Counted from the stretch's first letter, positions 32,362-58,682 are shown. The stretch is 64,000 bases of DNA from a bacterium (GCA_965213625.1 CBDBZU010000004.1:1312001-1376000); one strand, 5' to 3'. Numbers and translations: made by a program. The notes: generated by a model from the letters alone, not told the origin.

Positions 32362-33720
32362 ATGCCGAGAAGAGTCGCCATAATCGGTGCGGGAGTTTCA
32401 GGACTGGGGGCGGCCTGGACGCTGAACCGCCACCCCGACAGATTCGATTTCAGGCTCTTTGAGGCGCAGTCCCAGGTGGGCGGCAACGCCGTCACCGCCG
32501 ACATGCCGCAAGACGACGGCGCCTCGATTCCCTTCGATATTTCCGTCACCGCCTGCATCCCCTCGGTATACCACCACATTCTTCTTCTGATGCGGCAATA
32601 CGGGGTCGAGCTTGTCGATACCCGGTTCAGCTACAGTGTGAAGTATCGAGGCGGTGTTTATGCGCACGATTTTGACTCCGACATCAGGCGGCAGCTTCAA
32701 CCGGAAATCGAGAAATTCCAGAAACTGTTAAAACGCCTCAAGTGGTTCGGCGCTCTCAGCCGCTCGCGCTCCAGGTTCCTGGCCGCCCTGAACCCGTTCA
32801 ACTACGTGAGCATGGGCGCGGTTCTGAACCTGGGCAAATTTTCAGGCGATTTCATGTACAAGATCCTGAAGCCCATGTTCGTCAACTTCCTGATGGCCAC
32901 GAATGTGTTCGATATGCCCGCGTCCCTGTTTTCGAGGTACCTGGAGTTCTTCGACATAGAATCAGCCACGCCCATGCAAACCTGGGGCGGCTGTACGCGC
33001 CGCATCTACGAGGAACTTTCAGCGGACTTCCAAGAGAAGATTTACCTCGAGCGGCCGGTCCGAAAGGTGTATAGAAGTTCATCCGAAGTCGTCGTGGAGG
33101 ATGAAGAGGGGAAAACGGAGAAGTTCGATGACGTCGTTTTCGCGTGCAACGCGAACCAGACGCTGATGATGCTGGATGCGCCGACGCGCTTCGAGAACTG
33201 GCTCCTCTCCTCGATAAGGTATGAGAGCGAACTGCACAATCACACGATCGTTCATTCGGACGCTTCGGTGCTGCCGGAGAGCGACGTCAAGGCGCTCGAA
33301 ACCCGGAGCAACCACATCGAGCAGTACAGCGTGCGGCCCGACAACTACGAGATTACCTACATCATGCACAACCAGCAGCCCTGGGCGAAGCGCTCGGACA
33401 AGCCGTGCCTGGTGACCTACAATCCCATCAGTCCTATTGATGAGAGGAAGATCGTCAAGAAGTGGTGGTTCCAGCACATCGTGCACGACGTGCCGCACGT
33501 GGCCTTGCTCATGCCGATGTTCCGCTTCGCTCAGGGCAGGAGGCGGACTTGGCACTGCGGTGCCCACACGCTCATCAACAGCCAGGAGACCTGTTTCGTG
33601 ACAGGCCTCGCCGCGGCAAGACAATTGGGAGCGGACTATCCGTTTCAAGATATTGAGGCGAGGAAGTGGTTCAACTTCTACGGGCGCACGATGTACGGCC
33701 GGCGTTTCAAGAAGGCGTGA
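32362..33720 (+). CDS. FAD-dependent oxidoreductase (COG2907/amine-oxidase-like)
   Basis: VAIIGAGVSGLGAA Rossmann motif, FEAQSQVGGNA, HSDASVLP, QGRRRTWHCGA. Confidence 0.85.
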   Translation: MPRRVAIIGAGVSGLGAAWTLNRHPDRFDFRLFEAQSQVGGNAVTADMPQDDGASIPFDISVTACIPSVYHHILLLMRQYGVELVDTRFSYSVKYRGGVYAHDFDSDIRRQLQPEIEKFQKLLKRLKWFGALSRSRSRFLAALNPFNYVSMGAVLNLGKFSGDFMYKILKPMFVNFLMATNVFDMPASLFSRYLEFFDIESATPMQTWGGCTRRIYEELSADFQEKIYLERPVRKVYRSSSEVVVEDEEGKTEKFDDVVFACNANQTLMMLDAPTRFENWLLSSIRYESELHNHTIVHSDASVLPESDVKALETRSNHIEQYSVRPDNYEITYIMHNQQPWAKRSDKPCLVTYNPISPIDERKIVKKWWFQHIVHDVPHVALLMPMFRFAQGRRRTWHCGAHTLINSQETCFVTGLAAARQLGADYPFQDIEARKWFNFYGRTMYGRRFKKA

Positions 33721-34057
33721 ACCGGGGCTTTCTTTGCGCGGATGAGTTGGCGAAGATTGGCGCGGCAACCTTGGGCGAGGCCGCCGATAGCGTTGCGGTG
33801 GCCATCGTGCGCGAGCCGGTATTACAATCATCCCGAATTCCTTGCTGATAGAGAGCAGCCATGGTCTGGTCGCGTAGTGCAGCGATTAAGATTTTCGTGA
33901 ACGGACGCGGGCAAGGAACAATTTTAAAATGGCAGGTCCGGTTTTGAGAAGAATTATCATCCGCAAACTGATAGGATATAATCATGGAAGGACGCGACAC
34001 GTATTGCTTTCTGCATCTGCCGACTCTGCTGATGGCACTCAAACGGAGGAAACTATA

Positions 34058-34873
34058 ATGCGCGCTCGTCTCGCCCGCACTGTATTCTTGCTTCTCGTAA
34101 TCTGCACGTACGCTCTGGCTCATCTCTCCACCGTGCCGCATGCGGAGAGCGCGACGCCCGAGGAGAAGGGTCTCCAGATCGCGCGCGAAACCCGCGAGAA
34201 AGCCAAAGGTTTCGGGAATTTCACGGCCGAGCAGAGCATGGTGCTTCGCAACAAGCACGGCCAGGAGAGCCGGCGTCAGCTCCGCGTGAAGGTTCTCGAG
34301 ACGGACGGAGGCGGCAACAAGAGCCTGTTCGTCTTCGATCGTCCGCGCGACGTGAGGGGCACTGCGCTGCTCGTTCACACCCATAAGAAGAAGAACGACG
34401 ACCAATGGCTCTACCTGCCCGCTCTCAAGCGGGTAAAGCGCATCAGTTCGTCGAACCAGTCGGGCTCGTTCATGGGCAGTGAATTCGCCTATGAGGACAT
34501 GGGTACGCAGGAGGTGGAGAAATATACCTACCGCTACTTGCGCGATGAGCCTTGCGGAAAGCTGACCTGCACGGTTGTCGAGCGCTTCCCGACGAGCAGG
34601 AGGTCGGGCTACAGGCGTCAAATCGTCTGGCAGGACAAGAGCGAGCTGCGCGCCTGGAAGGTGCAGTACTACGACCGGAAAAACTCACATTTAAAGACGC
34701 TCACACTGGGTAAATTCAAGAAGTATCTGGGTAAGTACTGGCAGGCCGGCGAAATGACGATGGTGAACCACCTGACGGGAAAGAGCACCGTTCTTAGCTG
34801 GAAGGATTACAAGTTCCGCACCAACCTCAAAGAGCGAGACTTCACCCGGACCGGGCTGAAACGGGTGCGCTGA
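34058..34873 (+). CDS. Outer-membrane lipoprotein-sorting (LolA-like) periplasmic protein
   Basis: Signal peptide; PRDVRGTALL, DDQWLYLPALKRVKRISS..SGSFMGSEFAYEDM; GGAGG RBS. Confidence 0.85.
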   Translation: MRARLARTVFLLLVICTYALAHLSTVPHAESATPEEKGLQIARETREKAKGFGNFTAEQSMVLRNKHGQESRRQLRVKVLETDGGGNKSLFVFDRPRDVRGTALLVHTHKKKNDDQWLYLPALKRVKRISSSNQSGSFMGSEFAYEDMGTQEVEKYTYRYLRDEPCGKLTCTVVERFPTSRRSGYRRQIVWQDKSELRAWKVQYYDRKNSHLKTLTLGKFKKYLGKYWQAGEMTMVNHLTGKSTVLSWKDYKFRTNLKERDFTRTGLKRVR

Positions 34874-36129
34874 TGCCGCTGCGCGCCGCATTTTTCCGCG
34901 CGGTACTCGCCGCTGTCACGATATGGGCCGTACTCATCTTCGCCGGGGCGAGCCACGGGGCCGAAAGCATTGAGCACGAGTTTTCCGGCAGCCTGGACAT
35001 CGATGGCCGGTGGTATCCCCAACTCCAAGCCCATCCCGAACAGCGCACACACGCGAGCGGTTTGGCCGTCGAACCGAAACTCCATTTCAGGGGCGAGGGC
35101 GACTGGAGTTTCACGCTCGCGCCGTTTTTCCGCTACGACGGCGCGGACTCGCGCCGAACCCACGCCGACCTGCGCGAAGCCTACCTTCTGGTGTTCGGTG
35201 AAGCCGGCGAGGGGGAATGGGAGCTACGGCTGGGCGTGGACCGCGTGTTCTGGGGCGTCACCGAGTCGCAGCACCTGGTCGACATCATCAACCAGACCGA
35301 TCTCGTCGAACATCCGAACAAGGAAACAAAGCTGGGCCAGCCCATGGCCCACCTCACATTGTCGGCGGAGTGGGGCATCCTGGAGTTTTTCGCCCTCACC
35401 TATCACCGGGCGCGCACCTTCCCGGGCCTTCATGGCCGCCTGCGCTCCTCGATTCTCATAGACGATGAGCACGTCTCATACAAAAGCGCCGCCCAGGAGT
35501 GGCGCGTGGACCTCGCCGCCCGCTACAGCCACAGCTTCGGGCCGTTTGATTTGGGTGTCAGCGTATTCGACGGGACCAGCCGGGAGCCTTATATCATGCC
35601 GCACCTGGACTCTCTCGGCAGGCTGAGCCTGCGGCAGCACTATGAGAAAATTCGCCAGGTCAGCGTGGACGCCCAGCTCACAATCGAGTCGTGGCTGTTC
35701 AAGCTGGAAGCCCTTCAGCGCGAAGGCGCGCGAAACCTCCAGGGCGTGAAAGAGGACTTCGCCGCTTTCGTCGTCGGGGGTGAATACACCTTCAACTCCG
35801 TTTTCGGCTCGGCCGCCGACCTCGGCCTGCTAGCCGAATGGAATTACGACGAGCGGCGCGAGCGCTCGAACTCCGAGTTCCAGAACGACTTCTTCTTCGC
35901 CGTTCGCCTCGGGCTCAACGACGCCCAGAGCACGGAGCTTATCGCCGGCGTTCTGGCGGACGCGGACCACACCACGCGCACCATGAGCATCGAATTGAGA
36001 CGGCGCCTTTCGGATCAGTGGTCCATGAAGCTGGAATCGATCATTCTCATGGACGTCGACGAAGAAGACATCATCCATGACACGAGGCGGGACAGCTTCG
36101 TGGCCCTGAACGTGACGTATAATTTCTAG
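34873..36129 (+). CDS. Outer-membrane beta-barrel protein
   Basis: Signal peptide, DLREAY, VFWGVTES..DIINQTD, terminal VTYNF barrel signal; translationally coupled to the LolA-like gene. Confidence 0.75.
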   Translation: MPLRAAFFRAVLAAVTIWAVLIFAGASHGAESIEHEFSGSLDIDGRWYPQLQAHPEQRTHASGLAVEPKLHFRGEGDWSFTLAPFFRYDGADSRRTHADLREAYLLVFGEAGEGEWELRLGVDRVFWGVTESQHLVDIINQTDLVEHPNKETKLGQPMAHLTLSAEWGILEFFALTYHRARTFPGLHGRLRSSILIDDEHVSYKSAAQEWRVDLAARYSHSFGPFDLGVSVFDGTSREPYIMPHLDSLGRLSLRQHYEKIRQVSVDAQLTIESWLFKLEALQREGARNLQGVKEDFAAFVVGGEYTFNSVFGSAADLGLLAEWNYDERRERSNSEFQNDFFFAVRLGLNDAQSTELIAGVLADADHTTRTMSIELRRRLSDQWSMKLESIILMDVDEEDIIHDTRRDSFVALNVTYNF

Positions 36130-36164
36130 ATCAAATTCTTTTCGTCTGCGTAACCGATAGAGTC

Positions 36165-36545
36165 GGGGTTTTTTAAAAATCCCTCTCCGCCTCATCCTGA
36201 GTAGCGGTGAAGCCGCGTATCGAAGGATGCCCTCTCGCCCGGGGTGAGGTGTTCGGAGCCCCTCGCCCCTCGAAAGGCTCAGGACGGGCCCCTTTGGTAC
36301 GCCGCCTTCGGCGGCTACTCAGGATGAGGAAAGAGGGGCAGGCGGTTTGCGAACTACCCCGTTAAGAGGGGAACAGGGGGGTTGGTTTAGTAGGGACAGG
36401 TCGCGACCCCGACCAGGCGCGGGGGCCTGTCCGGCTACGGCGGTGTCCCTCGATACGGCATTGGCGGGCCTACTCGAGATGAGGAAGTTTTTTGTTTTCC
36501 TCACCCTGAGTAGTCATGAGCCTGTAGAAGGACGCATCGAAGGAC
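36165..36545. repeat. Cluster of REP-like palindromes between convergent genes
   Basis: Several CTCATCCTGAGTAG/CTACTCAGGATGAG units plus GTAGGGACAGGTCGCGACC (also at 52052). Confidence 0.65.
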
Positions 36546-36599
36546 CGTCTTCAGCGGGGCGCATGTATACGCGGGGAACGCCGCGCCGGCCGTTGCCGG

Positions 36600-38633
36600 T
36601 CAGGAAGTGAGGGCGACTGCCCGGTGGTCACTTGCCGCCCGATCAGATGAGAAGATCGGGCGCTTCGACTTGATTCGGAGCTTGAGGCTCTTGCGAGGGG
36701 TGCAGGTCGGAAACGGGTTTATCTTGACCGGGTAGCTCGATGGCAGCACTTCAAGCTCGAAGTAGTAGGCGATCATCAAAAGATTGATCGTCATTTGATA
36801 TTCCGCCACCCTCGGGCCGAGGCAGGTGTGCGTACCGAAACCGAATGCCCCGAACGCGCCGGGTTTCTTGTGCTCCTCGCGCCCGGAAAGATACCGGTCG
36901 ATGTCGAACTTCTCCGGATCCGGATAGTTCTCCTCCATGTAGTGAACGGCAGTGGACGCCAGCACGACGCGGGCATCGATGGGTAGTTCATAGCCCTCCA
37001 CGATGCAGCTGTTCATGACGGTTCTCAGCTGCAACGGTACGCTGGGATAGATCCGGAGGGTTTCTAGAATCAGCCGGTGGGCGGTGTCGATGTTCTCCTC
37101 CTTCAAGTCCTCAGGTCCCGGGTCTCCGTTCGCGAACAGCGCCTCGGCTTCCCTGCGCACACGCTGAAAGACATCCGGATGGGAGACCATCAAATAGAGC
37201 CCGAACGCGACGGCGGTGCCCATATACATGGCTGCGACGAACGGGATGATCATCATGAACCTGGTATCGGTATCCGGGAAGTACTGTGGGTCGCTGGTGT
37301 GCAGGCTGAGCAGGTCGTCGATCAGGTCGCGGGGTTGGTTTTCGCGCTGCGCAGGGGTGTGCGAGTTGCGGATCATGGAATAGACGTGGTCGATGCGCTG
37401 TCGGATGGCCTTCATCCGAGGCGTTCGCATGAAGAACTTCGGCAAAATCTTCTGGGCGTAGGTGATCAACATGCGGTTCTTGTATTTGTGGATGTCGTCC
37501 ACGTATTCTGAAAAATCCATACTGAACAGGAGCCGGGATACCTGGCCGGACATCAGAGTGCGGGTTGCGTCCTTGGCGACGAGCACGTCGCCCACGTTCC
37601 ACGAATCAAGCGCCAGCCGCATCTCTTCGAACAGGTCTCCGAGACGGTTGTTCAGGCGGCTCCGGGAGGAGGCCATCTGGAACGCCTTGCGCATGCGGAA
37701 ATGTTCGGCCCCGTCCATGCCCGGCAGGCTTCTCGATGCGCCGAGTACCTTCTCCATACCCTCCATGGTTTCCTTTGAACGCAAGTGCATCCGACCGTTC
37801 CGGTTTACCCAGATGTTGGCATCGTTCCCGGCGATGATGAAAACTCTCTTCTTGGAAAGGGGAGACTTGATTGCGAAAACGGGACCATAGTCGCGGTAAA
37901 GATCGGCCAGCAGTTTGGACGTATTCCCTTGCCAAAGCGAATCTTTGCGGAGCATTTTCCACAAGCTTACGTTGGGAATGGGTTTTGTCGCTATCGCGAT
38001 AGAGCGACTGACCGATGTCTCCACGACGGCGGCGGCGACGGAGCGGCTGATGCGGTCCAGCATGCCCAGCAGTTCGATTCGCTCGCGCGAAGCCTCGTAG
38101 TCTGCCGGCTGCAGAAGAAACCGGAACGCGTCGCAGGAATTGGCAAGTCCGATGATAATTGCGTCACGGGGGTCGGGTATGCCGTCTCCCAGGATCGTCT
38201 CGATGATTCGCCGACGTACGATTGCCCGAGACTCGCCGCTGGACATACCGTTGTCCGCTATAGCCGCGTTTCGCGAAAGAGACCAGAAGCCGCCGTTCGT
38301 ATAGTCCAGGATCCCGTTTTTCGACAACCGTCCGAGAGCATGATGCAGGATATCGTCCGACGTAGCGGCGATTTTCTCGACCCAGTAATTTATGCTGCGT
38401 GGCTCCGGATCGGCGGCAATTGCCGCCAGCACGGGGTCGAGAATATCGTCTCCCACGGGTGTGGAATCGTCCAGCGCAAACGTCTCGTGCGCGGTGTCGA
38501 GACGGGACTCGAGGTCAAGGTCCGCCAGCACGGCGCCTGCCATAACGCACGAGAGATTCCAGCCCGCAACCTGTTCGAGATAGCCGCTCTCTTCGTTCAG
38601 CAAGAGAAGCAGGAGCTCGTCAATTAGTTTCAT
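36600..38633 (-). CDS. Cytochrome P450 with N-terminal GPP34/GOLPH3-like domain
   Basis: C-terminal FGFGTHTCLG heme motif, ETLR, PEKFDIDRY; N-terminal ~200 aa LIDELLLLLLNEESG...AGAVLADL...TPVGDDILD resembles the GPP34 family. Confidence 0.85.
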   Translation of the reverse strand: MKLIDELLLLLLNEESGYLEQVAGWNLSCVMAGAVLADLDLESRLDTAHETFALDDSTPVGDDILDPVLAAIAADPEPRSINYWVEKIAATSDDILHHALGRLSKNGILDYTNGGFWSLSRNAAIADNGMSSGESRAIVRRRIIETILGDGIPDPRDAIIIGLANSCDAFRFLLQPADYEASRERIELLGMLDRISRSVAAAVVETSVSRSIAIATKPIPNVSLWKMLRKDSLWQGNTSKLLADLYRDYGPVFAIKSPLSKKRVFIIAGNDANIWVNRNGRMHLRSKETMEGMEKVLGASRSLPGMDGAEHFRMRKAFQMASSRSRLNNRLGDLFEEMRLALDSWNVGDVLVAKDATRTLMSGQVSRLLFSMDFSEYVDDIHKYKNRMLITYAQKILPKFFMRTPRMKAIRQRIDHVYSMIRNSHTPAQRENQPRDLIDDLLSLHTSDPQYFPDTDTRFMMIIPFVAAMYMGTAVAFGLYLMVSHPDVFQRVRREAEALFANGDPGPEDLKEENIDTAHRLILETLRIYPSVPLQLRTVMNSCIVEGYELPIDARVVLASTAVHYMEENYPDPEKFDIDRYLSGREEHKKPGAFGAFGFGTHTCLGPRVAEYQMTINLLMIAYYFELEVLPSSYPVKINPFPTCTPRKSLKLRIKSKRPIFSSDRAASDHRAVALTS

Positions 38634-38822: not shown

Positions 38823-39563
38823 TTATCCGCCGTCAGGATCCGCCAGACGCTCGACCGCTTTTTTGTGAACAAGCCGCTCAAATGCGTCTTTCGGCGGCAA
38901 TCTTATCGCGCGCTCGAGTAGATTGCGCGCCTTCGCGCGGTTCTTTTCGGCATCCAGGCTCAGAAGGCCGAGCGCGTACTCGTATAAGGCCACCTTGTCC
39001 CGAGGCGTCAATTCGAGCGCCCGTTCGAAATGGACGAGTGCTTTCTCTTCGTCCGCCCCGTAGAGCAGACCGGCGAAGAATCCGCCTGCGCCGACGGCGC
39101 CCGCATGCCAGGCGGCCAGGCTTACATGGGCGGCCGCCATATTCGGCTCCAGCCGAAGCGCCTCCTCGATGGCATCGCGCACTATACCGGCGTAGCCTTC
39201 CTTGAGCGCCTGAAGCGTCCCGACCACCTGCGCCTGGCGGCCCATGGCGTGGGCTAGTTGGAGATGGGCCTCGGGGTTGACCGCGTCGAGCTTTATGGCT
39301 TCTCGTGCGGACTCCTCGGCCCGCTCGAACAAGCCCGCCTTTTCGCCTTTCGGCGCAAGGTAGTAGCCGTATATCGCCAGTGAATCGGCGGCCAATGCAT
39401 GGCCTTTGGATGTGCCGAGCGTCCGGGCGAGAGAGGCGGCCTCCATGAAGCGGCCCTCGGCGTATGCGGCGCGGGCTTCTTCTATCGACTGTGCGCATGC
39501 AGTTCCCGCCGGATCGAACGAGCACGAAATCATCAGGCACACGAGGATTATGATTTTACGCAT
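38823..39563 (-). CDS. Secreted TPR-repeat protein
   Basis: MRKIIILVCL signal; helical repeats EAIKLDAVNPEAHL, EALRLEPN, YGADEEKALVHFERALELTP. Confidence 0.65.
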   Translation of the reverse strand: MRKIIILVCLMISCSFDPAGTACAQSIEEARAAYAEGRFMEAASLARTLGTSKGHALAADSLAIYGYYLAPKGEKAGLFERAEESAREAIKLDAVNPEAHLQLAHAMGRQAQVVGTLQALKEGYAGIVRDAIEEALRLEPNMAAAHVSLAAWHAGAVGAGGFFAGLLYGADEEKALVHFERALELTPRDKVALYEYALGLLSLDAEKNRAKARNLLERAIRLPPKDAFERLVHKKAVERLADPDGG

Positions 39564-39667
39564 ACCGCGTATCCCGGGGATCGGCGGATTCCATGACCGT
39601 TTCGGTTGGAAAGGGGGTTTCTTGAGCATTGCGAGAGGCGTTCGTTTCGCCAAGAAGCCGCCTGCCC

Positions 39668-40690: not shown

Positions 40691-40745
40691 TATTACGATG
40701 CCTTTATCGTAAGTAACTATCGTTTTGCAAAAAAGTCGCCAGCCC

Positions 40746-41771
40746 CTAATCCGGCTTGCGGGCGAGTATGAAATACATCGGGCTGAAGATGCCGAGCCGA
40801 CCGGCTTCGGCCATGGCGACGGCAGTACGGTTCAGCAGGCTCGAAACATGGGTCGTCCCGTGAGGCACGATTCTCAAGCGTTCGAGTAGCCATAGCATAT
40901 TGTGGGTCAATCGGCGTCCGACTGCCGAGGCGCGGAAGGTGGTGAAGGAAAGGCCGGAGCCGACAAGCGGCTGGTACCAGGGGATGCCGGGCGGTGCGTC
41001 GGCCTCCATGTCGCGCGCTTCGAGCAGTTCGAAGCCGACCTGTCGCAGAGCGTCGTCGACTTCGTGTGGCCGGGCGATATTCGGCATGGCGTTGCCATAT
41101 TCTACATCGGCTTTGATCTGCCGATGATCGGAATTTTCAGCGTCGAACCTATCGGTCATACACCATTCGTATGCCGCGAGAAATTTCCCGGGCTTGAGCA
41201 AGCGGAAAGCTTCGCCATATATAGCGACTTTATTGGGTGCACAGCAGGTCGACTCGACGGAGTAAATCGCGTCGAAGTAGTTGTCCGGCGCGTCGACATC
41301 CATGAAATCGCATTTCAGATATTCGGCCAGATGGCTCAGATGTTCGGCTTCAGTCAGCTCTGCGGCGCGCTTCAACTGGTATGCGTTGTTATTAACGCCG
41401 ACGATTTTTGCGCCGGAAAAGCGGGCGATCTCGCACAATGGACCGCCGACGCCGCAACCCAGATCGGCTACCACCATACCGGGCCGTAGGCCCAGCCTGT
41501 GGGCGATGTAATGTTCATGGCGCGCGAGCGAAGCGGCGAAGCCCTCCCCATCGTAACGCGGCGCGAAGTGAAAGGACTTGCCCCAGCCATACTCAAATAA
41601 GTCTGTAACCAGATCGTAATAAGTGTTCTCGTAATTCTGGTAGTCGGCCTTGCGCTCATTCCGGCCGTCGCTCTCCATGTCGCTGAAGCGGCGCTCCCAC
41701 TCCTGGATGCGCGAGGCGACGTCGTCGCCGGATTTCGCGTCTTTCAGTATCTCCGTGAGCTTGGGCTTCAC
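40746..41771 (-). CDS. Sterol C24-methyltransferase-like, copy B
   Basis: TDLFEYGWGKSFHF, DLGCGVGGP, YSVESTCCAP, AYEW, GIFSPMYFILARKP; GTG start overlaps the MMPL stop (GTGA). Confidence 0.9.
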   Translation of the reverse strand: MKPKLTEILKDAKSGDDVASRIQEWERRFSDMESDGRNERKADYQNYENTYYDLVTDLFEYGWGKSFHFAPRYDGEGFAASLARHEHYIAHRLGLRPGMVVADLGCGVGGPLCEIARFSGAKIVGVNNNAYQLKRAAELTEAEHLSHLAEYLKCDFMDVDAPDNYFDAIYSVESTCCAPNKVAIYGEAFRLLKPGKFLAAYEWCMTDRFDAENSDHRQIKADVEYGNAMPNIARPHEVDDALRQVGFELLEARDMEADAPPGIPWYQPLVGSGLSFTTFRASAVGRRLTHNMLWLLERLRIVPHGTTHVSSLLNRTAVAMAEAGRLGIFSPMYFILARKPD

Positions 41772-44063
41772 CGCAAGTCCATACGGTCAAGGACCATCAA
41801 CAGGGGCGGGAGGAGCAGGAGGTCCAGGAACAGCGCGAAGCCGAGCGTAAGCGCAACCAGGAGGCCGAGCATCCAACTGATCGCGAATCCCGACAAAGCG
41901 AACACCAGGAAGCCCAGCACCAGCATCATGGTCGTGGTGAACAGCGCAAAGCCTACCGAACGGAAGGAATAGCGCACCGCCTCGATCGATGAAAGACCCT
42001 CCTCGCGACGTCCCTTCAGATACTTGCTCATGAAATGAATCGTGTCGTCGACGACGGTGCCGAAGGCGATTGCGGTCACGAGGGACCCGGCGGGCCCCAC
42101 CTCGACGTACAGATAACCCCAGACGCCGAAGGCCATGGCCGCGGGGATGAGGTTGGGCACGAGGCTGACGAGGCCTAAGCGCAGGCTCTTGAAAATCCCG
42201 ATCAGGATCAGCGAAATGAGGATCATGCCCGTGAGCGTGCCCCATAACATGCTCAAGGTGTTCCGTAAGGCCAGGTGGGCGAAAATGAGGCTGTACCCCG
42301 ATGCTTCGCTCGCGAGTTTGGGCGCGTTGGCGCGGAGCCAGTCCTGCCCACGCGCTTCGAGCGCGCGCAGTTCCTCGGACTTCAGTCTTTTGACCGTCAC
42401 GGTCATGCGTGTTGCGGATTTGGCGATGTTGATGCGGTTGTTGAGGTCCATGCCAAAGGGAACCGAAAGCTCGTAGAGCAGCAGGTACTGCGCGGCGAGC
42501 CGGGAGTTTTCGGGCAGCCGGTGGAAGGCCGGCTTGTCGCCGTTCATGTTCTTGTTGAGGCGCTTCATGATGTCCGTAAATACCTGCACGTGCGCGACTT
42601 CCGGCTGGGCGCGGTACCACTTGGCGAATGCTTCGACTTTGCCCAGATACTTGGGATCGGTGATGCCGCCATCGCGCCCCGAGTTCAGGGAGTACTCCAG
42701 GGTTTCCACGCCGGTCAGGTTCTCGATGACGAAGTCCGTGTCGCGCCGGAATTCGTAACGCTCATCGAGGTGCTGCGTCCAGTTGTCCGTCAACTCGACG
42801 CGGGGCACGCCGGCCACGAGCGCGATCGCGACGGCGGCCACGGACCAGAGCAGGAGCGTGCGGCGCGCGACGACGAAGGCGCCGAGGCGATCGAAGAGGT
42901 TGGAACCCCCGGCGCGTACGGCAGGCGCGCGCAACGGCAGGACCGACATCAGCGCCGGCAGAAGCGTCATGGAATAGACGTAGGCGCAGAACATGCCGAA
43001 CGCCACCAGGTTGCCGAGGATCCGGAATGGCGGAGAATCCGAGGCGTTCATGCTGAGGAAGCCGATAATCGTCGTGGCCGTCGTCAGGAACACCGGCCAG
43101 GCATTGTCGCGCAGCGATTCGGCAATTGCCGCGTCCCTGTCCAGGCCACTCCTCATACTTGAAATGATCGACTCGACGACGTGGACCGAGTGCGCGATGG
43201 CGAGCGTCATGATGATGAGGGGAACGCCGGAATTGGCGGCGTTGAGCACCAGGCCTATCCAGCCGATGACGCCCATGGTCGAGATGACGGTGAAGATGAT
43301 CACGGCGATGAGAGACAGCGTGCCGAACAGAGAGCGCAGAAGGATGGCGGCGACGAAGACGATGACGAAGAATGCGGCGGGCGCGAGTATCCCCATATCG
43401 TCCTGGGCCGCTTCGGTTAGAACCTGGTTCACGAAGACGTTGCCGGTTACGTGATATTGGATATCGGGATGCTTCGCCCGGGCTTTGGCCAGGAGTCCGC
43501 GGATATGGTGGTAAATCCGGATTTCCGCGGCGTCCGAACGCTCGGGCAAGGCGAAACTGATGACCAGCCCGGCAACGCGTCCGTCGCGGGAGACGAGACG
43601 GTCCACGATGCTGCTCTCGCTTAACGCAATCTTCTTTATCCGCGCGATATCGTCGTCGCCGAGCGACCCCGCGTCGTCGACGAGGCGCTCGACGATCAAG
43701 TCGTCCTCTTCCGCCTCTGTGTGGTTATAGTTCGTAATCGAGTCGACCCGTGTGGCCCTGGGCACGCGCCAGGCGGCTTCGGTCAACTCCTCGACGGCGC
43801 CGAGCGCCTCCCGCGTGAACACCGACCCCCCCTTTGGGCGCGACGGCGATCACCGCCGCATTGGTCGCTGAATAGGTAGCCTCCATGGCGTCGAATGCCA
43901 CGAGTTGGGGGTTGCCCACGTCCAGCATGTCGCGCCAGTCGTTGGAGATGACGATTGTGCGGAGGCCGACTGCCAGAATCAGCATGACCGCTACGCTCGC
44001 CGCGAGGACCAGCCATCTGCGGCGCAGCATGAACGTGATGTAGCGGTTCAGAGTTGCGGACAT
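41768..44063 (-). pseudogene. MMPL/RND-family transporter, copy 1, +1 frameshift in a G7 run
   Basis: N-terminal ORF 43725-44063 and main ORF 41768-43822 join if the G7 run (C7 at 43826-43832) is G6, giving APKGGSVFTREAL as in the paralogs; GTVVDDTIHF. Confidence 0.85.
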
Positions 44064-49266: not shown

Positions 49267-49630
49267 CCCCGACTAGCGCCGCGCCCGCCGCTCCACGCTG
49301 GCGGCTACTCAGGGTGAGGTCGATTAAGTAGCCAAAAATGACGAGGGGTACGCGCTCGCTACCAGAACCGGGTTTTTCAACAACCCCTTGCCAGGGGGGC
49401 TTATTCACCATCCCCAAGGAGGGGGGGATTGCGCGCCCCTCCCCTGAAAGCGCACGTCGAGAATCGATCCCGCCCGTTCGGGAAAGGCTGGTTCCGACCA
49501 GACGATAAGATGAGATGCCCGGTAACGCCGACCCCTCGATTTCGTGGACAAACGATGCACGAGCATGTAGATTGACGGCTCTTTCAACGACTTTACTCTT
49601 TCGCGGTTCTCTTATCATTTGGAGTATGCC

Positions 49631-52458: not shown

Positions 52459-54747
52459 TCACTTCTTCCGGTCGAGAGCCATCAGCAAGGGCGGCAGAAG
52501 CAGGAAGTCGGTGAGGAGCCCAAAGATGATCGTGATCGAAACCATGAGACCGAGTGTCCAACTCCCCTCGTAGCCCGATAACGTGAACATCAGGAAGCCC
52601 GCCGACAAAACCACGGTCGTTGTCCATAGCGCATGTCCTACGGTGCGAAAGACGGCGCCTACGGCCTCGGGCGCGGTAAGGCCCTCGCGGCGGCTCTTCA
52701 GGTATTTGCTCAGAAAATGAATCGTGTCGTCCACGATAATGCCGAAAGCGATTATGGTCATCACGGAGGCTGCTAGACTCACGCGGCTTACCAGATAACC
52801 CCACAGGCCGAAGGTCATGGCGGCGGGAATGAAGTTGGGCACGAGGCTGATGAGGCCCAGGCGCACGTTTTTGAAAACCAGGATCAATATGAGCGAAATG
52901 AGGGTCATGCCGATGAACGTTCCGCGCAGCATGCTTTTCATGTTTCGTTGCGTGAGGTGAGCGAAGATCATGCTGATACCCGATGCTTCGGCTGCGAATT
53001 CGGGTATGTTGGCGCGCAGCCAGGTCTGCGCGCGCAGATCGAGCGCACGTAAGCCTCGAGCCGAGACGCCCTGGACCGTTACAGTCATTCGTGTTGCGGA
53101 TTTCCCGACATCGATGCGGTCGTTGAGGTCGCTGCCGAACGGAAGGGAAAACTCATAAAGCAGCAGATATTGCGCGGAGAGCCTGGAATTCCCAGGCAGG
53201 CGATAAAAGGCCGGGTCGTCGCCATGCATGTTCTTGTTCAAGCGCTTCATGATATTCGTGAACGCCCGGACGTGGGTGACTTCGGGCTGTTTTCGGTACC
53301 AATCGGCGAAGGCCTCTACTTTTTTCAGGTATCCGGGGTCGGTAATGCCGCCTTCGCGCCCCGCTTTCAACGAGTATTCCAGCGAATTCAAGCCGGTCAG
53401 GTTTTTGATCACGAAATCCGTGTCGCGCCGGAACTGGTAACGATCATCGAACTGCTTCGTCCAATCTTCGCTCAGTTCATTCCGGGGAATACCGGTGAGC
53501 AAAAGGATCGTCAATATGGAGACGAACCAAAACAGGGGCGTGCGGCGCGCGACGACGAAAGCGCCGAAACGATCGAAAAAGCCGGACACTCCGTTGTGGC
53601 GACGAGGCGCGCGCAGCGGCAGGATTGAAAGCAGCGTGGGTAGAAGTGTGATGGAATAGAAAAAAACGGATAAAACCCCGAACGCCACCAGATTGCCCAG
53701 TTCCTGAAAAGGCGGTGAATCTGAGGTGTTCAGGCTCAGGAAACCGATCGCCGTCGTGAGCGAGGTGAGAAACACCGGCCAGATGTTGCTGCGAAGCGAT
53801 TCCATGATCGCCCCGTTTCTGTCCAGACCTTTTCGCATGGCGATAAGAGTGGTCGAGACGATGTGGATTGAATGGGCAACGGCAATCACCATGACGATGA
53901 TCGGGAGGCCGGCGGTGATGGGGCTGAACACCAGGCCTACCCACCCTGTGAATCCCATGGTGGTGTTGATGGAGAATATAATAACGAAAACGATAGCCAG
54001 GGTGCCGAGCAGCGAGCGCAGTAGAAGGGCCGTACCGATGATGACGACGAAAAACGCGATAAGCCCGATGTTCTCCATCGTACTCGCGGTGGCGTCGGCG
54101 ACGGTGCGGTTCAAAACGACGTTGCCGGTCAGGTAGTACGTGATATCGGGATGGCTCGTGCGGGCCTTGCTCAGAACGGCGTTCAGATAATCGGTTATCT
54201 CGACTACCACATTTTCTTGTTTTTCAGGCAAGACGAAAGTGATCACCAGCCCGCCCACGCGTCCACCCTGAGAGACCAGACGACCGGAAAGATCGGCCGA
54301 ATTCAGCGCGACCTCCCTGATGCGCGCGAGGTCGGTGTCGCTGAGCGCGCTCGCTTCATCGACGAGCGGCTCGACTATCAGATCATCCCCCTCCGCCCGG
54401 CTGTGGTTGTAGTTCGTGAGGGAGTCGACCCGGCTCGAATGCGGCGTCTTCCAGGCGGCTTCGGTCAACTCCTCGATGGCGCCGAGCGCCTCACGTGTGA
54501 ACACCGAGCCCTCGCGAGTCGCAATGGCGATGAGCGCCGTATCGGATTTGGAGTAGGTATCCTGCAAAATGTCGAAAGCAGCGAGTTGGGGATTGTCTTT
54601 GCCCAATAAAATACGGTAGTCATCCGAGACGGTGATGTAGCGGGTTCCCGCCGTCATCAGCAGCATGAGCAGAGAAACCAGCCCGACGATCAGCCAACGG
54701 CGGCGCAGAACAACATCTAGGTAGTGGTCCACATGCAAAAGAGTCAT
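52459..54747 (-). CDS. MMPL/RND-family transporter, copy 2 (start may be 54786)
   Basis: SVFTREAL..RVDSLTNY, PVFLTSLTTAIGFLSLN, GIIVDDTIHF; hydrophobic clusters in two repeats. Confidence 0.9.
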   Translation of the reverse strand: MTLLHVDHYLDVVLRRRWLIVGLVSLLMLLMTAGTRYITVSDDYRILLGKDNPQLAAFDILQDTYSKSDTALIAIATREGSVFTREALGAIEELTEAAWKTPHSSRVDSLTNYNHSRAEGDDLIVEPLVDEASALSDTDLARIREVALNSADLSGRLVSQGGRVGGLVITFVLPEKQENVVVEITDYLNAVLSKARTSHPDITYYLTGNVVLNRTVADATASTMENIGLIAFFVVIIGTALLLRSLLGTLAIVFVIIFSINTTMGFTGWVGLVFSPITAGLPIIVMVIAVAHSIHIVSTTLIAMRKGLDRNGAIMESLRSNIWPVFLTSLTTAIGFLSLNTSDSPPFQELGNLVAFGVLSVFFYSITLLPTLLSILPLRAPRRHNGVSGFFDRFGAFVVARRTPLFWFVSILTILLLTGIPRNELSEDWTKQFDDRYQFRRDTDFVIKNLTGLNSLEYSLKAGREGGITDPGYLKKVEAFADWYRKQPEVTHVRAFTNIMKRLNKNMHGDDPAFYRLPGNSRLSAQYLLLYEFSLPFGSDLNDRIDVGKSATRMTVTVQGVSARGLRALDLRAQTWLRANIPEFAAEASGISMIFAHLTQRNMKSMLRGTFIGMTLISLILILVFKNVRLGLISLVPNFIPAAMTFGLWGYLVSRVSLAASVMTIIAFGIIVDDTIHFLSKYLKSRREGLTAPEAVGAVFRTVGHALWTTTVVLSAGFLMFTLSGYEGSWTLGLMVSITIIFGLLTDFLLLPPLLMALDRKK

Positions 54748-54848
54748 CGCCTCAGTGTGAAAGGTTCGGTACCGCTTCACGGACACCGATTCCAGCGCTA
54801 AGCGTTCATTTCATGGTTATGTAATGCGTGTCTCTGAGCGAACATCGT

Positions 54849-56022
54849 TTACCATTCGCTCTGTTTCGTCGCGCGTACGTGGTCAGGCATCCTGTAGCTG
54901 ATGCCTCCCCTGTCGTACTGCGCAGCGTCGAAAATCTGGGAGAACGCGTCTTCTCGAAAGAGTTTGGTGCCTCTCAACAATTGGAAGAGGCGTTCCCTGA
55001 CCCGGTAGTAGCCCAGCACCAGGGTTCTGCTTCTCAATGTCTTCGGATATTGGTAGGTGTCGGCGAGTTCGTTGCCTATGAGCGCTCGTGAAAGGCGGTA
55101 GGCGTACTTTTCCAGAGATTTTATTTCTGCTTCGCTCGTCAGCCCCGACATTATCGGAATGGCCTTGAATACCGTATTCGCCACGGCCAGACAATCAGAG
55201 TCCGGCGGCGGCTCGCACATGGAGGCGATATTGCGAAGCTCCCTCGCCTCTTGCTCGTTGGTGAAGAGGATGGTTTCGGGAACTCCGAGCAGATAGCCGG
55301 CGTAGCGCCAGATACTGACGATGCTTTCTTTTTCCTCCTGCGTGAGCTTGCCGCCCAGCGCGATTGCGTGTTCGAACTGACGTATGGAAAAAGTGTACAA
55401 GGAAACTCCGCCCAGGTGCGCCGCGCTCAGAGGCGTTCCCCACGCTTCGTGATCCCAGGCGTCGGAATTCGCCATCAGATGCCTGATCCGGGCATGGACG
55501 AAGCGAATGCGCATGGATATCTTCCATCCGTCGCCGTCTCTATCCAGCCCACCGGGATAATAAATTTCGACCATGTGGCGGTTATTCTGCCTGAGGCGTC
55601 TGATGGCTCCGTCATCCAGTCCGGTCACGCGCCCGGTGATGAAGAAAGATTTGGCGACGAGCGTCCCGAAGCCTTCCACCGCGCTGCCGACGGCGTATGC
55701 GATGAGCATGTTGGTCATGTTTTCGAAGAAGGCGCGCATGCCCGGCTTGAAGGCCTCGAAGTCGACCCAGGGAGGCACGTCGGAATCGACTTTCTCGAAG
55801 AAGTCGCGCAAGACTTTCGGAGCTTCGCGCAGAACGCCGTGGTGCTGCTCTATACCGGCCTCGATGAATGCGTGCAGGTCGTAGGCAGGGAGGGAGGATA
55901 TCTCCTCCATCACCCAGTTCGGCATCGCCTATGGTGGTGTGCCGGATGTAGTTGTCTACTGATTCTTGATCGAATTGATGATTGTTCTGATAACCTTCAA
56001 CGTATGCGGATGGTATTTGCAT
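54849..56022 (-). pseudogene. MpaB/Lcp-like heme oxygenase (DUF2236-like), frameshifted near 55914
   Basis: MQIPSAY..NYIRHTTIGDAEL in one frame continues as VMEEISSL.. in another; VPPWVD, RIRFVHARIR, WGTPLS, WRYAGYLLGVP. Confidence 0.7.
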
Positions 56023-56393
56023 TGCCAAAAGGCCCCCTTCTAAGCCTATGCAGTGCTTACGCGAATCTCCCGGTGAGACGAAGTATGAATTCATCCGTAA
56101 AAGACAAGTCCGTCTATTCATTGGGTCACACCGGAACTAAGCGATGAGTAGACACTATCCAAAAGTAGTCAAAATATCCTCGCAACCTTGATGGCTCCTG
56201 ATAACTATTTGTTTCACCATTCTTTATGATATCAATATAATTACTTTAACATATTATCAAATTCATTTGGCTGCGCAAGAATTTTTTCAGACAACCCCGG
56301 ATGGGTTGCCTGTCCACATTCACCCGCAATCTCCGGCGGAAACAACTCGCAATCTCGAATCACTTGCCTGATGGGCGAGGCTGAATGGCGACG

Positions 56394-58682
56394 TCACTTC
56401 TTCCGGTCGAGAGCCATCAGCAGGGTCGGCAGAAGCAGGAAATCGGCCAGGAGCGCGAATACGAGCGTGATCGCCACCATCAGGCCGAGCGTCCTGCTGC
56501 CGTGGAACCCCGATGTGGCGAACACCAGGAAGCTCAGTGACAATACCGCCGTCGTCGTCCATAGCGCCTGGCCCACAATTCGAAAGGCGGCGCGCACGGC
56601 TCCAGGCGCGGGGATGCCCATCCGGCGGGCTTTTTGATATCGGCTCATAAAGTGAATGGTATCGTCCACGATGATTCCGAACGCGATGGCGGTCATCAAC
56701 GAGCCGGCAAAGTCCACCTGGCCGACCATATAGCCCCACAGGCCGAAGGTCATGGCGGCGGGGAGAAAGTTGGGCACGAGGCTGATGAGCCCCAGCCGAA
56801 CGCTTTTGAAAACCAAGATCAGGAGTAAAGAGATAATCAGCATGGCGATGATCGTGCCGCGCAGCATGCCATGGATGTTTCTAATCGATAGATGCGCGAA
56901 GATCATGGTGATGCCGGATGCCTCGGCCGCGAATTCGGGTATGTTGGCGCGGAGCCAGGCTTTGGCGTGCTCGTCGAGTTCGCGCTGGTCCTTGGAGGAT
57001 CGGTTGCGAACCATGACGCTCATTCGCGTCGTGGATTTGGCGACGTCGATGCGGTCGTTGAGGTCCATGCCGAAGGGAAGCGAGAACTCATACAGCAGAA
57101 GATACTGCGCGGCGAGCTTCGGATCCTCAGGGAGCCGGTAGTAGGCCGGGTCGTCTCCGTGCATGTTCTTGTTCAGACGCTTCATGATGTTCGTAAAAGC
57201 TTGGACGTGGCTCACTTCCGGCTGCTCCCGGTACCAATTGGCGAAGGTCTCGACTTTTTTCAGGTATTCAGGCTCGGTGATGCCGCCTTCGCGCCCCGCC
57301 TTGAGCGCGTATTCCAGGAAATTCATGCTGTTCAGGTTATCAAAGATGAAATCCGAATCGCGGCGGAACCGGTAGCGCTCGTCAAAATAGTGCGCCCATC
57401 TGTCGGTCAACTCGTTGCGTGGAATGCCTGTGATGAGAACAGCCGTCAGAACGGCGACGAAACAGAGCAGAAACACCCGGCGCTTGACCACGAAAGCGCC
57501 GAATCGGACGAAAAAAGGGGATTTGCCGGAGGGGATTCGGCGTGCGCGCAACGGCAGAACCGAAAGTACGGCCGGCAGCAGGGTCATCGAGTAGACGAAG
57601 GCCCACAGAACGCCGAGCGCCACGAGATTTCCCAGAATACGGGCTGGAGGCGAATCGGAGTAGTTCAGGCTCAGGAATCCGATCGCGGTCGTGATCGAAG
57701 TCAGGAACACCGGCCATGCGTTGCTCCGAAGCGATTCGGCAATCGCCGCATCCTTGTCCAACCCATGGTCCATGCCCAGCAGCGTGGTCGTGATGATGTG
57801 GATTGAGTGGGCGACGCATGTCGCCATGACAATGGTCGGTACGCCGGCATTTGTGGGGCTGAACACCGTACCGAGCCAGCCCGCAATCCCCATCGTGTTG
57901 AAGATGACGAACCCGATCACGACGATGATGGAAAACGTGCCGAGAAACGAGCGCAAAAGAAGTGTGCTGATGACGACAATCATGATGAACACGATTGGAG
58001 CCAGGAAGACGAAATCATTGTAAGTCGCCACGGAGAAGGTGCGGTTACTGATCACGTCACCGCTCAGGTAGTAGGCGATTTCCGGGTATCTGGCCCCGGC
58101 TTTCTTCAAGATAGCGTTCAGGTAATCGTTTATAGAGACCACCGCAGCGTCCATGTCGTCGGGCAGAACGAAAGTGACCGCCAGCCCGGCCACATGCCCC
58201 TCCCGGGAGACCAGACGACCGGGCAGATCGCGCGACTCGAGCGCGATTTTCCTGATTCGCGCGAGATCGGCATCGCTCAGCGAGCGCGCATCATCGACGA
58301 GCGGCTCGACGATCAACTCATCTCCCTTCGCCCAGCTATGGGTATAGTTCGTAAGTGAGTCGACCCGTCTGGAATGGGGTGTTCGCCACGCGGCTTCGGT
58401 TAATTCCTCGAGAGCGGCGAGCGCTTCTCGGGTGAACACCGAGCCCCCACGCGGAGCGATGGCGATGAACGCCATGTTGGATGTGGAAAAAATGTTCTCG
58501 AGAGCCTTGAAATCGGCGTACTGTGGATTTTCTTCGCTGAACAAGATGCGGTAGTCGTTCGTGACGCCGATGAAGAGCGCGCCGGTACCCGTGAGCAGCA
58601 TGATCAGCGTGGCGATCGCGATAACCGGCCAACGATAGCGTAGAACGGCGTTGGTATAGCGGTCCAATAGTATGGAAATCAT
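56394..58682 (-). CDS. MMPL/RND-family transporter, copy 3
   Basis: Paralog of copies 1 and 2; GIIVDDTIHF; 3' end identical to copy 2 (LLMALDRKK). Confidence 0.9.
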   Translation of the reverse strand: MISILLDRYTNAVLRYRWPVIAIATLIMLLTGTGALFIGVTNDYRILFSEENPQYADFKALENIFSTSNMAFIAIAPRGGSVFTREALAALEELTEAAWRTPHSRRVDSLTNYTHSWAKGDELIVEPLVDDARSLSDADLARIRKIALESRDLPGRLVSREGHVAGLAVTFVLPDDMDAAVVSINDYLNAILKKAGARYPEIAYYLSGDVISNRTFSVATYNDFVFLAPIVFIMIVVISTLLLRSFLGTFSIIVVIGFVIFNTMGIAGWLGTVFSPTNAGVPTIVMATCVAHSIHIITTTLLGMDHGLDKDAAIAESLRSNAWPVFLTSITTAIGFLSLNYSDSPPARILGNLVALGVLWAFVYSMTLLPAVLSVLPLRARRIPSGKSPFFVRFGAFVVKRRVFLLCFVAVLTAVLITGIPRNELTDRWAHYFDERYRFRRDSDFIFDNLNSMNFLEYALKAGREGGITEPEYLKKVETFANWYREQPEVSHVQAFTNIMKRLNKNMHGDDPAYYRLPEDPKLAAQYLLLYEFSLPFGMDLNDRIDVAKSTTRMSVMVRNRSSKDQRELDEHAKAWLRANIPEFAAEASGITMIFAHLSIRNIHGMLRGTIIAMLIISLLLILVFKSVRLGLISLVPNFLPAAMTFGLWGYMVGQVDFAGSLMTAIAFGIIVDDTIHFMSRYQKARRMGIPAPGAVRAAFRIVGQALWTTTAVLSLSFLVFATSGFHGSRTLGLMVAITLVFALLADFLLLPTLLMALDRKK

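Follow-up and report, generated by a model that had tools for sequence, protein, structure and literature searches.

A bacterial gene island predicted to tailor sterols and to move them through the cell envelope

What does a bacterium do with three sterol methyltransferase (SMT) genes, a set of oxidative enzymes, and an array of lipid-transport genes that lie together in a single island? The island in question occupies positions 32362..58682, about 26-28 kb, of a 64,000-nucleotide stretch of DNA, here called the window (assembly GCA_965213625.1, contig CBDBZU010000004.1, referred to as C4, positions 1312001-1376000), which belongs to a 4.15-Mb genome that is 96.6% complete. Coordinates without a contig name are those of the window. 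The bacterium is a member of a genus with relatives labelled Nitrospinota or Nitrospinaceae, and the collections of metagenome-assembled genomes (MAGs) concerned look sponge-derived. The original prediction had described the locus as an integrated trans-envelope system for the uptake and remodelling of exogenous sterols. A Pfam scan of the long open reading frames (ORFs) between 30 and 64 kb of the window recovered all of the gene families then listed, each at its expected place, and agreed with the prediction that no squalene epoxidase (SE) or oxidosqualene cyclase (OSC) is encoded inside the window. The idea of an integrated enzyme and envelope-transport system for a sterol-like lipid was supported. 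In our judgment, the island is probably a horizontally shared unit that tailors a sterol or sterol-like triterpenoid and moves the product through the Gram-negative envelope; in kind, it would belong to bacterial sterol tailoring and trafficking, with a biochemistry that is predicted from sequence. Side-chain alkylated steranes (24-isopropyl and 26-methyl) are taken as the oldest chemical record of animals, and the island may let bacteria reshape sterols that are used as fossil markers of early animals. The sponge versus bacterial origin of the precursors of alkylated steranes is openly debated (PMC10070321, PMC12541326).

The three methyltransferases are SMT1 (39668-40690, minus strand; 340 aa), which has a Sterol_MT_C match of 80 bits together with a SAM-methyltransferase domain; its tandem paralogue SMT2 (40746-41771, minus strand; 341 aa; 66% identical to SMT1), with a Sterol_MT_C match of 82 bits; and SMT3 (48232..49266, plus strand; 344 aa from its likely start in an ORF that begins at 48088), with matches of 58 bits to Sterol_MT_C and 67 bits to CMAS. 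All three exceed the cut-off of PF08498 (Sterol_MT_C), which is 21.7 bits. The preprint of Brown and Welander (2025) describes 25 residues that are conserved in all functional SMTs and a Region I motif, GWGxxFHF. SMT positions are given in yeast numbering and were mapped through the Chlamydiae SMT in locus L092, which was identified by its Y43, F45, and G211 as the enzyme mutated by those authors; 18 of the 25 residues, up to yeast position 217, were compared. SMT1, whose Region I reads YEYGWGHSFHF, has Tyr81, Tyr83, and Gly249 and carries Q154H at a conserved Gln, with the other compared conserved residues kept. SMT2 has Phe81, Tyr83, and Asn249, and all 18 compared residues are kept. According to the same preprint, a G249N mutant retains ethylation and a G249I mutant retains the first methylation only. 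Because of Region I, the compared residues, and these mutant data, SMT1 and SMT2 look like working C-24 methylases of the ERG6 family.

A maximum-likelihood tree of 89 SMT sequences, built by a quick search with Shimodaira-Hasegawa-like approximate likelihood ratio test (SH-aLRT) values as the only support, placed SMT1 and SMT2 on the side that holds the functionally tested Chlamydiae SMT, as befits true members of the ERG6 family. Their respective partners in the tree are the two genes of a tandem pair from an alphaproteobacterial MAG (L017), where they lie beside an SE-OSC gene; the SMT1-SMT2 pair (39668-41771) matches L017:2255-4354 gene for gene, with 75% and 79% identity. Since congeners hold a single SMT at the same place, the pair appears to have been transferred as a unit. 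SMT3 falls into a clade of 24 rows with an SH-aLRT value of 100 and a long stem, in which the internal branches are short and the branching ignores taxonomy. The SAM-binding positions compared are all kept in this clade, and Met81, Trp83, Leu89 (in place of a conserved Phe), and Ile249 are invariant in 24 of 24; in addition, Thr78 is changed to Ser or Asn in 21 of 24, the SMT3 of the window having T78S. By its residues, SMT3 appears to be an active methyltransferase in which the acceptor pocket has been remodelled.

The oxidative enzymes include a GPP34 (GOLPH3-like)-cytochrome P450 fusion (36600..38633, minus strand; 677 aa), with matches of 149 bits to p450 (PF00067) and 95 bits to GPP34 (PF05719) and with an intact heme motif, FGFGTHTCLG, including the heme cysteine. 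For the two GPP34-P450s of the genome, CYP51 is among several equal matches at ~73 bits. The Rieske non-heme iron oxygenase, which is of the KshA type (47103..48140, plus strand; 345 aa; KshA_C [PF19298], 81 bits; Rieske [PF00355], 68 bits), has both the 2Fe-2S ligands, CxH...CxxH, and the iron motif, D..H....H; it matches KshA structures at 85-87 bits over the N-terminal half only, and the top 120 of its 2463 relatives are at least 64% identical to it. Its identification as SdmA was considered and rejected (NF052579, 36 bits against a cut-off of 600). The FAD flavoprotein of the amine-oxidase family (32362..33720, plus strand; 452 aa; Amino_oxidase, 62 bits, and NAD_binding_8) has LkcE as its closest solved relative, with 90 bits over the full length, followed by 2b9w; a resemblance to the furan-fatty-acid desaturase UfaD was considered, with no such model among the NCBIfam matches, and an atlas search led to clusters of generic FAD oxidoreductases only. 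Orthologues of the flavoprotein (763-878 bits) stand beside SMT3-type genes in L080, L081, L087-L089, L094, L095, L038, and L043. A putative heme oxygenase of the MpaB/Lcp family (54849..55925, minus strand; 358 aa; MPAB_Lcp_cat, 65 bits; 28 bits against rubber oxygenase) lies directly upstream of the transporter gene MMPL2. Inspection of the N-termini found no signal peptide in any of the enzymes; the LolA-like protein, the TPR protein, and both beta-barrels described below have one.

Does this combination of genes recur? When one genome per species was scanned with an alignment built from the three SMTs, 79 loci were obtained, whose ORFs were then searched with the window proteins. The loci come mostly from MAGs labelled Chloroflexota, Acidimicrobiia, Nitrospinota, Nitrospirales, Latescibacterota, Gemmatimonadota, Acidobacteriota, and Proteobacteria. 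In L067, labelled Nitrospinota, the genes run SMT3-Rieske-OMP, then MMPL-SMT-TPR-GPP34P450, then barrel-LolA, which is the order of the window without its insertion sequence (IS) and with a single SMT where the window has the SMT1-SMT2 pair; L090 and L084, also labelled Nitrospinota, are similar in order. When neighbours were counted at >=100 bits and <=10 kb, the 23 SMT3-type loci had a GPP34-P450 in 17 cases, a Rieske protein in 15, and the flavoprotein in 7, versus 5, 4, and 3, respectively, at the 56 other SMT loci; these counts are lower bounds, because several loci are short contigs. Since the order recurs in L067, L090, and L084, and since GPP34-P450 and Rieske genes are enriched at SMT3-type loci, the clustering of the island genes is not due to chance. 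The co-occurrence that the original prediction had called for, a neighbourhood of SMT, MMPL, GPP34-P450, and Rieske genes, thus recurs across MAGs.

The enzyme core of SMT3, GPP34-P450, Rieske protein, and flavoprotein has an RND pump of one kind or another beside it in MAGs from six or more phyla. Among the loci selected for Pfam scans, L080 (Gemmatimonadota) has OEP-HlyD-AcrB followed by GPP34-P450, SMT3, flavoprotein, and Rieske genes, and in L088 (Chloroflexota) the core encloses the pump, in the order flavoprotein, SMT3, GPP34-P450, MMPL, and Rieske. A closed gammaproteobacterial record, L066, has TPR-MMPL-LolA_like-SMT directly beside SE-OSC, CYP51, ERG24, and an SdmA-like Rieske/VanA_C gene, an arrangement that ties the TPR/MMPL/LolA_like trio to a complete sterol cluster. 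In L148, SE-OSC, ERG24, GPP34-P450, and MMPL genes stand together. Conservation between orthologues is high (64-86% for the Rieske protein and up to 91% for SMT3). The island is a composite of a syntenic block, a recurrent enzyme core, and probable extra copies in the form of MpaB-MMPL2 and MMPL3.

A GPP34 + P450 architecture, named GPP34_L, has been called exclusive to sponge symbionts and proposed as a secreted effector that blocks phagosome maturation, in an article that nowhere mentions sterols (PMC11706023). The occurrence of GPP34-P450 among sterol-type enzymes and lipid pumps, both here and at the 17 SMT3-type loci, therefore points to a membrane-docked lipid-modifying P450, and a hallmark of sponge symbionts gains a different candidate role. 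A literature search found no publication that joins GPP34 with a sterol methyltransferase, and the module as a unit was not found described in the literature searched, as had been supposed.

By what route might the products travel? The three MMPL transporters of the original list are present, with the amendment that MMPL1 reads as two ORFs in the window (extra C at 43826-43832): MMPL1 (41768..44063, minus strand; intact 764-codon reading; MMPL, 104 bits; Sterol-sensing, 31 bits), MMPL2 (52459..54786, minus strand; 775 aa; 110 and 45 bits), and MMPL3 (56394..58682, minus strand; 762 aa; 101 and 34 bits; 65% identical to MMPL2). They are distantly related to the MmpL4, MmpL5, and HpnN structures. 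A LolA-like periplasmic protein (34058..34873, plus strand; likely start at 34058 in an ORF from 33929) has LolA_like and DUF1329 matches of 207 and 32 bits, both above the Pfam cut-offs, and is followed by a DUF1302-like outer-membrane beta-barrel (34873..36129, plus strand; 418 aa; C-terminal ...TYNF). A second outer-membrane beta-barrel, OMP (46047..46970, plus strand; 307 aa; C-terminal ...RYRF; OMP_b-brl, 51 bits), is conserved upstream of Rieske-SMT3 in L067, L090, L084, L022, and L023. The remaining component is a secreted TPR protein of the TatT/BstC fold (38823..39563, minus strand; 246 aa from the likely start in ORF 38823-39815), whose signal peptide ends in ...ACA before QS.

The TPR protein was modelled with AlphaFold 2 (AF2) using eight orthologues, with a predicted local distance difference test (pLDDT) score of 88.5, and compared with solved structures by VIA-align. 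The model matched 8g52 (TPAT T-component) with Z 22.0; 7t1s with Z 21.3 and a root mean square deviation of 3.1 over 214 of 230 residues; the lipid-transfer TPR domain of PTPIP51 with Z 20.3; and TatT (3u64) with Z 19.9. The entry 7T1S is the sterol-binding protein BstC (PMC10942540), and this match is 4-7 Z units higher than the generic TPR rows, at Z 14-17. On the model, the TPR protein has the fold of BstC, and sterol binding is putative. A complex between the LolA-like protein and the DUF1302-like barrel was predicted in three runs with a 28-row alignment per protein; it scored 0.76, versus 0.00 for the best control; of 157 solved complexes, 116 attain this mark, as do 2 of 215 mismatched pairs. 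Between the runs, 95% or more of the contacts agree, the partner pLDDT is 83 or higher, and the contacts are spread over many strands of the barrel. The prediction supports docking of the LolA-like protein on the neighbouring barrel.

A metagenome scan with an MMPL alignment matched 605 stretches, of which 406 were confirmed as relatives, and 78 loci were kept. A LolA-like gene followed the MMPL gene in 51 of the 78 and a barrel gene followed these in 32; the genes beside the MMPL included GPP34-P450 in 6 loci, an SMT in 3, and SE-OSC in 1. The triad of MMPL, LolA-like, and barrel genes was also present in distant, apparently non-sponge contigs without sterol genes, and it therefore seems to be a general envelope lipid system that has become attached to sterol-type genes in sponge symbionts. 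MpaB adjoins MMPL in 10 of the 78 loci and does so again at C4:4.047-4.052 Mb. The latter belongs to a second MpaB-MMPL-flavoprotein set (C4:4046888-4053221), which includes a fifth MMPL paralogue and in which the MpaB gene is split by a Mutator-family transposase gene. As for direction, the RND/MMPL proteins of known role are exporters, and we know of no bacterial RND pump that imports. Outward trafficking is therefore the likelier direction, and the uptake part of the original prediction was not borne out.

The source of the sterol can be sought in the rest of the genome, where the original prediction had proposed a search for cyclase, epoxidase, and CYP51 genes. The search found a fused SE-OSC (C4:57822-61388; 1188 aa), intact and with the motif VSDCTAE, 1.25 Mb from the island; a CYP51 orthologue was not found. 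The cyclase part scores 728 bits on TIGR03463 (cut-off, 851) versus 266 bits on hopene cyclase. Directly after this gene come the second GPP34-P450 (C4:61457-63487) and a fourth MMPL paralogue. A NUDIX-SQS-SQS fusion of 719 aa (C4:3631491-3633650, minus strand), HpnC/HpnD-like and followed by an HpnE-like flavoprotein gene, is predicted to supply squalene together with that flavoprotein. Frames of 719-724 aa over tandem SQS_PSY matches in G001, G008, G013, G014, G019, and G020 suggest the same fusion there. An own protosterol is thus predicted to be available as input in this genome, through the fused SE-OSC.

The later steps of a conventional pathway are less evident. At 96.6% completeness, the genome gave a best match of 49 bits to a symbiont CYP51 (self-score, 1156) and 22 bits to an SdmA-like query (self-score, 1386), with 37 bits on NF052579 against a cut-off of 600; hence no CYP51 or SdmA orthologue was found. 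For SdmB, for which no specific search was made, there were weak generic matches of the 3beta-hydroxysteroid dehydrogenase family only (34-58 bits), a family that is present in all 14 control genomes. The P450s of the genome consist of the two GPP34 fusions, one protein on the small contig C3, and two fragments. The C3 protein was rejected as a CYP51, its nearest solved relative being 7wzl at 124 bits, with CYP51 at 67. Of the fragments (C4:69420-69626 and C4:1935139-1935435), one is an N-terminal piece 6 kb from SE-OSC and the other has two TAG interruptions. A divergent gene of the ERG4/ERG24 family (C4:347993-349129; 113 bits on PF01222) has orthologues near SMTs in L030, L037, and L041 and beside an MMPL in L124.

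Is the cell's own sterol, then, the only input? Triterpene cyclases were counted in 30 other carrier genomes, representing all 23 SMT3-type loci and seven others, and in 24 genomes from the bacterium's own family, including 22 congeners. Five of the 30 carriers had an OSC-grade match and four a hopene-cyclase-grade match, and 21 had no triterpene cyclase; among the 15 carrier records titled "chromosome," 11 were without a cyclase. An OSC was lacking in 6 of the 10 SMT-positive congeners, three of the six being in 1-2 contigs. The ERG4/ERG24 family was present in 22 of the 30 carriers versus none of the 14 controls, and 18 of the 21 cyclase-less carriers have such a gene, two of the genes being interrupted by stops; most cyclase-less carriers have a gene that scores in the range of C4:347993-349129 on PF01222 (~100-155 bits) and is a candidate orthologue of it. 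Because most carriers have no cyclase, the module evidently can use sterols of the host or neighbours too, and host or community sterols remain a live substrate. Exogenous sterols, on which the original prediction relied, thus lose their standing as a necessity, given the SE-OSC and the squalene synthase fusion, and keep it as an option suggested by the cyclase-less carriers and congeners.

A strict form of that prediction would have the island take up sponge sterols, remodel their side chain and nucleus, and return them, the cell's own cyclase being irrelevant. Besides the cyclase-less genomes and the ERG4/ERG24-family reductase that most of them keep, the lack of a CYP51 or SdmA orthologue in this genome would fit such a cycle. 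It is opposed by the intact SE-OSC with its adjoining paralogous GPP34-P450 and MMPL; by the confinement of OSC within the genus to SMT-positive genomes (4 of 10, versus 0 of 12 SMT-negative ones); by L066 and L017, in which these transporter genes and SMTs directly adjoin complete clusters for de novo synthesis; and by the want, as far as we are aware, of an importing RND pump. A further point for the cycle is that the TPR protein has TatT relatives in uptake systems (PMC10942540). On balance, we regard the strict form as unlikely. A wider proposal is put forward tentatively, as a reading that is less likely than not: cyclase-less sponge symbionts with a conserved set of SMT3-clade methyltransferase, GPP34-P450, KshA-like Rieske protein, flavoprotein, divergent ERG4/ERG24 reductase, and an RND pump would acquire, rebuild, and return the sterols of the host or neighbours. 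Diderms would add the BstC-like carrier and the LolA-like/barrel complex, and side chains would be rebuilt beyond what ordinary SMTs achieve, as in unusual sponge alkylations. If so, bacteria would have a share in the making of "sponge" sterol biomarkers, and GPP34-P450 would act on sterols instead of serving as a phagosome effector.

The reading that we prefer, a shared island for tailoring and outward trafficking, can be set out stepwise. On the cytoplasmic side of the inner membrane, SMT1 and SMT2 would extend a delta-24 sterol by at least one carbon at C-24, and the core of SMT3, KshA-like Rieske protein, membrane-docked GPP34-P450, and flavoprotein would make further changes to the side chain or rings. 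The products would leave the inner membrane by way of the MMPL/RND pumps and cross the periplasm on the BstC-like TPR protein and the LolA-like protein, and the complex of the LolA-like protein with the DUF1302-like barrel, perhaps along with the second barrel, would deliver them to or through the outer membrane. The input would be the own protosterol in this genome and sterols of the host or neighbours in cyclase-less carriers. MpaB-MMPL2 and MMPL3 would represent extra copies of a second, related module type (MpaB-MMPL-LolA-barrel).

Several observations weigh against this proposal. The SMT3 clade breaks 2 of the 25 conserved residues (F89L and T78S/N) and has Ile249; therefore, the usual delta-24 sterols may not be its substrate. 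The DUF1302 match of the barrel, at 19.6 bits, is below the Pfam cut-off of 23.2. The MMPLs are far below the cut-offs of the curated models, with 137-157 bits versus 352 on HAE3 (TIGR00921), 22-31 versus 1400 on BstA (NF045600), and, on the two HpnN models, 58-90 versus 752 (TIGR03480) and 30-43 versus 1100 (NF052374); MMPL2, for example, has 137, 90, and 22 bits on HAE3, HpnN, and BstA, respectively. The calibration of the complex score is only rough, because alignments built by the authors were used. The direction of transport follows solely from the usual behaviour of RND pumps, and the roles of enzymes and transporters are drawn from sequences and models. MMPL1 is frameshifted in this assembly, and an IS lies in the promoter region. 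Finally, squalene/phytoene synthase (SQS_PSY) genes, mostly as tandem or fused pairs, are present in 30 of 30 carriers; thus, an endogenous acyclic substrate for the SMT3 core is possible.

Could the core cassette, then, act on a non-sterol isoprenoid, such as squalene or an acyclic or hopanoid-like lipid, leaving only SMT1 and SMT2 to touch sterols? The ubiquity of SQS_PSY genes among carriers, most of which have no cyclase to use the squalene, would suit this explanation, as would the NUDIX-SQS-SQS fusion with its HpnE-like flavoprotein in this genome, the invariantly altered sterol-binding Region I of the SMT3 clade, and the solved relatives of the flavoprotein, which act on polyketide or fatty-acid chains. 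Squalene-methylating SMT-like enzymes occur in Botryococcus. However, KshA_C-type Rieske proteins and ERG4/ERG24 reductases are steroid-associated families, paralogues of the cassette stand beside SE-OSC, the TPR protein matches a proven sterol binder, and SMT3 is above the Pfam cut-off for Sterol_MT_C. A non-sterol substrate for the core is accordingly judged quite improbable.

The lesions raise the question of whether the island is decaying cargo, in which duplicated transporters and mobile elements form a patchwork that has lost its function as a unit. In the window, MMPL1 is split into 41768-43822 and an N-terminal piece, 43725-44063, which matches MMPL N-termini, by one extra C in a 7-C run at 43826-43832. 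Contigs of runs X2 and X4 have six C at this place and hence the single 764-codon frame, whereas run X1 agrees with the window; the 7-C run is either a strain polymorphism or a homopolymer assembly error. The IS, of ~1.5 kb (44409..45928, minus strand; DDE transposase, 44454-45902; DUF772, DDE_Tnp_1, and DDE_Tnp_1_6 by Pfam), sits between the divergent MMPL1 and OMP operons. Of the 33 ORFs of its transposase in the genome, 26 have full length; breaks in the contigs fall at 44409/44410 and 45927/45928, and the depth of the IS is 10-40x that of the flanks. It is absent from the matching spacer of L067, and among the contigs of other runs none was seen that joins across the IS position as an empty site. 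The frameshift, the IS in the divergent promoter region and its many copies genome-wide, the paralogous MpaB split by another IS, and the lack of own LolA-like and barrel partners for MMPL2 and MMPL3 are what decay would produce. Beside MMPL2 and MMPL3, a tblastn search of the window detected no residual LolA-like, barrel, or MpaB sequences, and a decayed tandem array is thus not visible here. Against decay, the enzyme ORFs are all intact, the cofactor motifs are intact in the three checked (P450, Rieske protein, and SMT3 of the window), MMPL1 is intact in the contigs of two other runs, and the orthologues are highly conserved; decay of the whole is very improbable.

Least credible of all is a catabolic system in which sterols are imported and degraded for carbon by the KshA-like oxygenase, the P450, and an MpaB-type cleavage enzyme: the KshA_C domain, the P450, and the family description of MpaB/Lcp as cleaving isoprenoid double bonds would fit, but three methyltransferases would be senseless in degradation, the transporters are of the RND type, and Pfam scans of the island and related loci, the rest of the genome not being searched, found no KstD-, Hsa-, Mce-, or beta-oxidation-type family.

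The proposed tailoring and trafficking island can be compared with known systems. Bacterial SMT clusters (PMC10070321; PMC9531527) and a fused SE/cyclase (PMC7074536) have been published already. The clusters of Brown et al. 2023 (PMC10070321) share with this locus ERG6-family SMTs in bacterial operons, a fused SE/OSC in the genome, and hosts of the sponge-symbiont type. As published, they combine SMT, SE/OSC, CYP51, ERG24, SdmA, and SdmB; here, in contrast, 1.25 Mb separate the SMTs from SE-OSC, no CYP51 or SdmA orthologue was found, and GPP34-P450, a KshA-type Rieske protein, a flavoprotein, and genes for envelope transport are the partners. Rieske, RND, MMPL, P450, amine oxidase, and GPP34 go unmentioned in six supplementary files of that article. 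BstABC of Methylococcus capsulatus (Zhai et al. 2024, PMC10942540) likewise has, in the published description, an RND inner-membrane protein and a TPR-like protein, periplasmic or associated with the outer membrane, beside sterol enzymes, and the same role has been proposed for it, sterols being carried to the outer membrane. The TPR protein shares the BstC/TatT fold but is 17% identical to BstC in sequence; none of the MMPLs is orthologous to BstA, the island has a LolA-like protein and a DUF1302-like barrel, and its scanned ORFs contain no BstB-type binding protein by Pfam. The locus thus points to a second type of bacterial sterol trafficking besides BstABC.

In modules of Proteobacteria, a LolA/LolB-like DUF1329 protein, a barrel, and an HAE3-like RND protein are also encoded together; cofitness among the DUF1302, DUF1329, and COG1033-RND genes has been reported for several bacteria, and export of an envelope component has been proposed (Price et al. 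10.1101/072470; Thompson et al. 10.1101/2020.07.04.188060). Unlike those modules, the island shows no BNR protein and has a barrel that scores under the DUF1302 cut-off, and the triad of the sponge symbionts is tied to SMT, GPP34-P450, MpaB, and SE-OSC genes. HpnN, which also belongs to the RND/MMPL proteins and carries a polycyclic triterpenoid to the outer membrane, ranks among the best matches to named models and is not orthologous. The island shows bacterial SMTs in the company of a constant suite of oxidative enzymes and a dedicated, predicted route through the envelope; this set occurs mostly in cyclase-less genomes, and symbiont remodelling of host sterols is narrowed to a short list of candidate genes. 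The window adds a full diderm version, with three SMTs, a BstC-fold carrier, a predicted LolA-like/barrel complex, and SE-OSC in the genome, together with counts of cyclase-less carriers.

A xanthine-dehydrogenase-family/molybdenum-cofactor gene (49619-51931) lies inside the span of the island and is not conserved with the module. Its candidacy as a module member was raised by weak homologues 4-7 kb from SMTs in eight Acidimicrobiia loci and was rejected; these homologues score below the genome's own paralogues, and their proximity is therefore regarded as a coincidence. The genes on either side are of the housekeeping kind. To the right, the island is flanked by Liv-type ABC transporter genes, and a Peripla_BP_6 gene (60455-62536) lies outside it, among the Liv-type permease genes. 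To the left are hydantoinase genes and two tandem complex I sets on the same strand (103-20973, plus), the first nuoF,G,H,I,J,L,M,N-like and the second nuoA,C,D,H,J,L,M,N-like, so that NuoH, J, L, M, and N are each encoded twice, in tandem operons. A 466-aa protein just left of the island (30194-31594, minus strand) has a weak, sub-cut-off match of 17.7 bits to the inverse-autotransporter beta-domain and a paralogue at C4:3869734-3871446.

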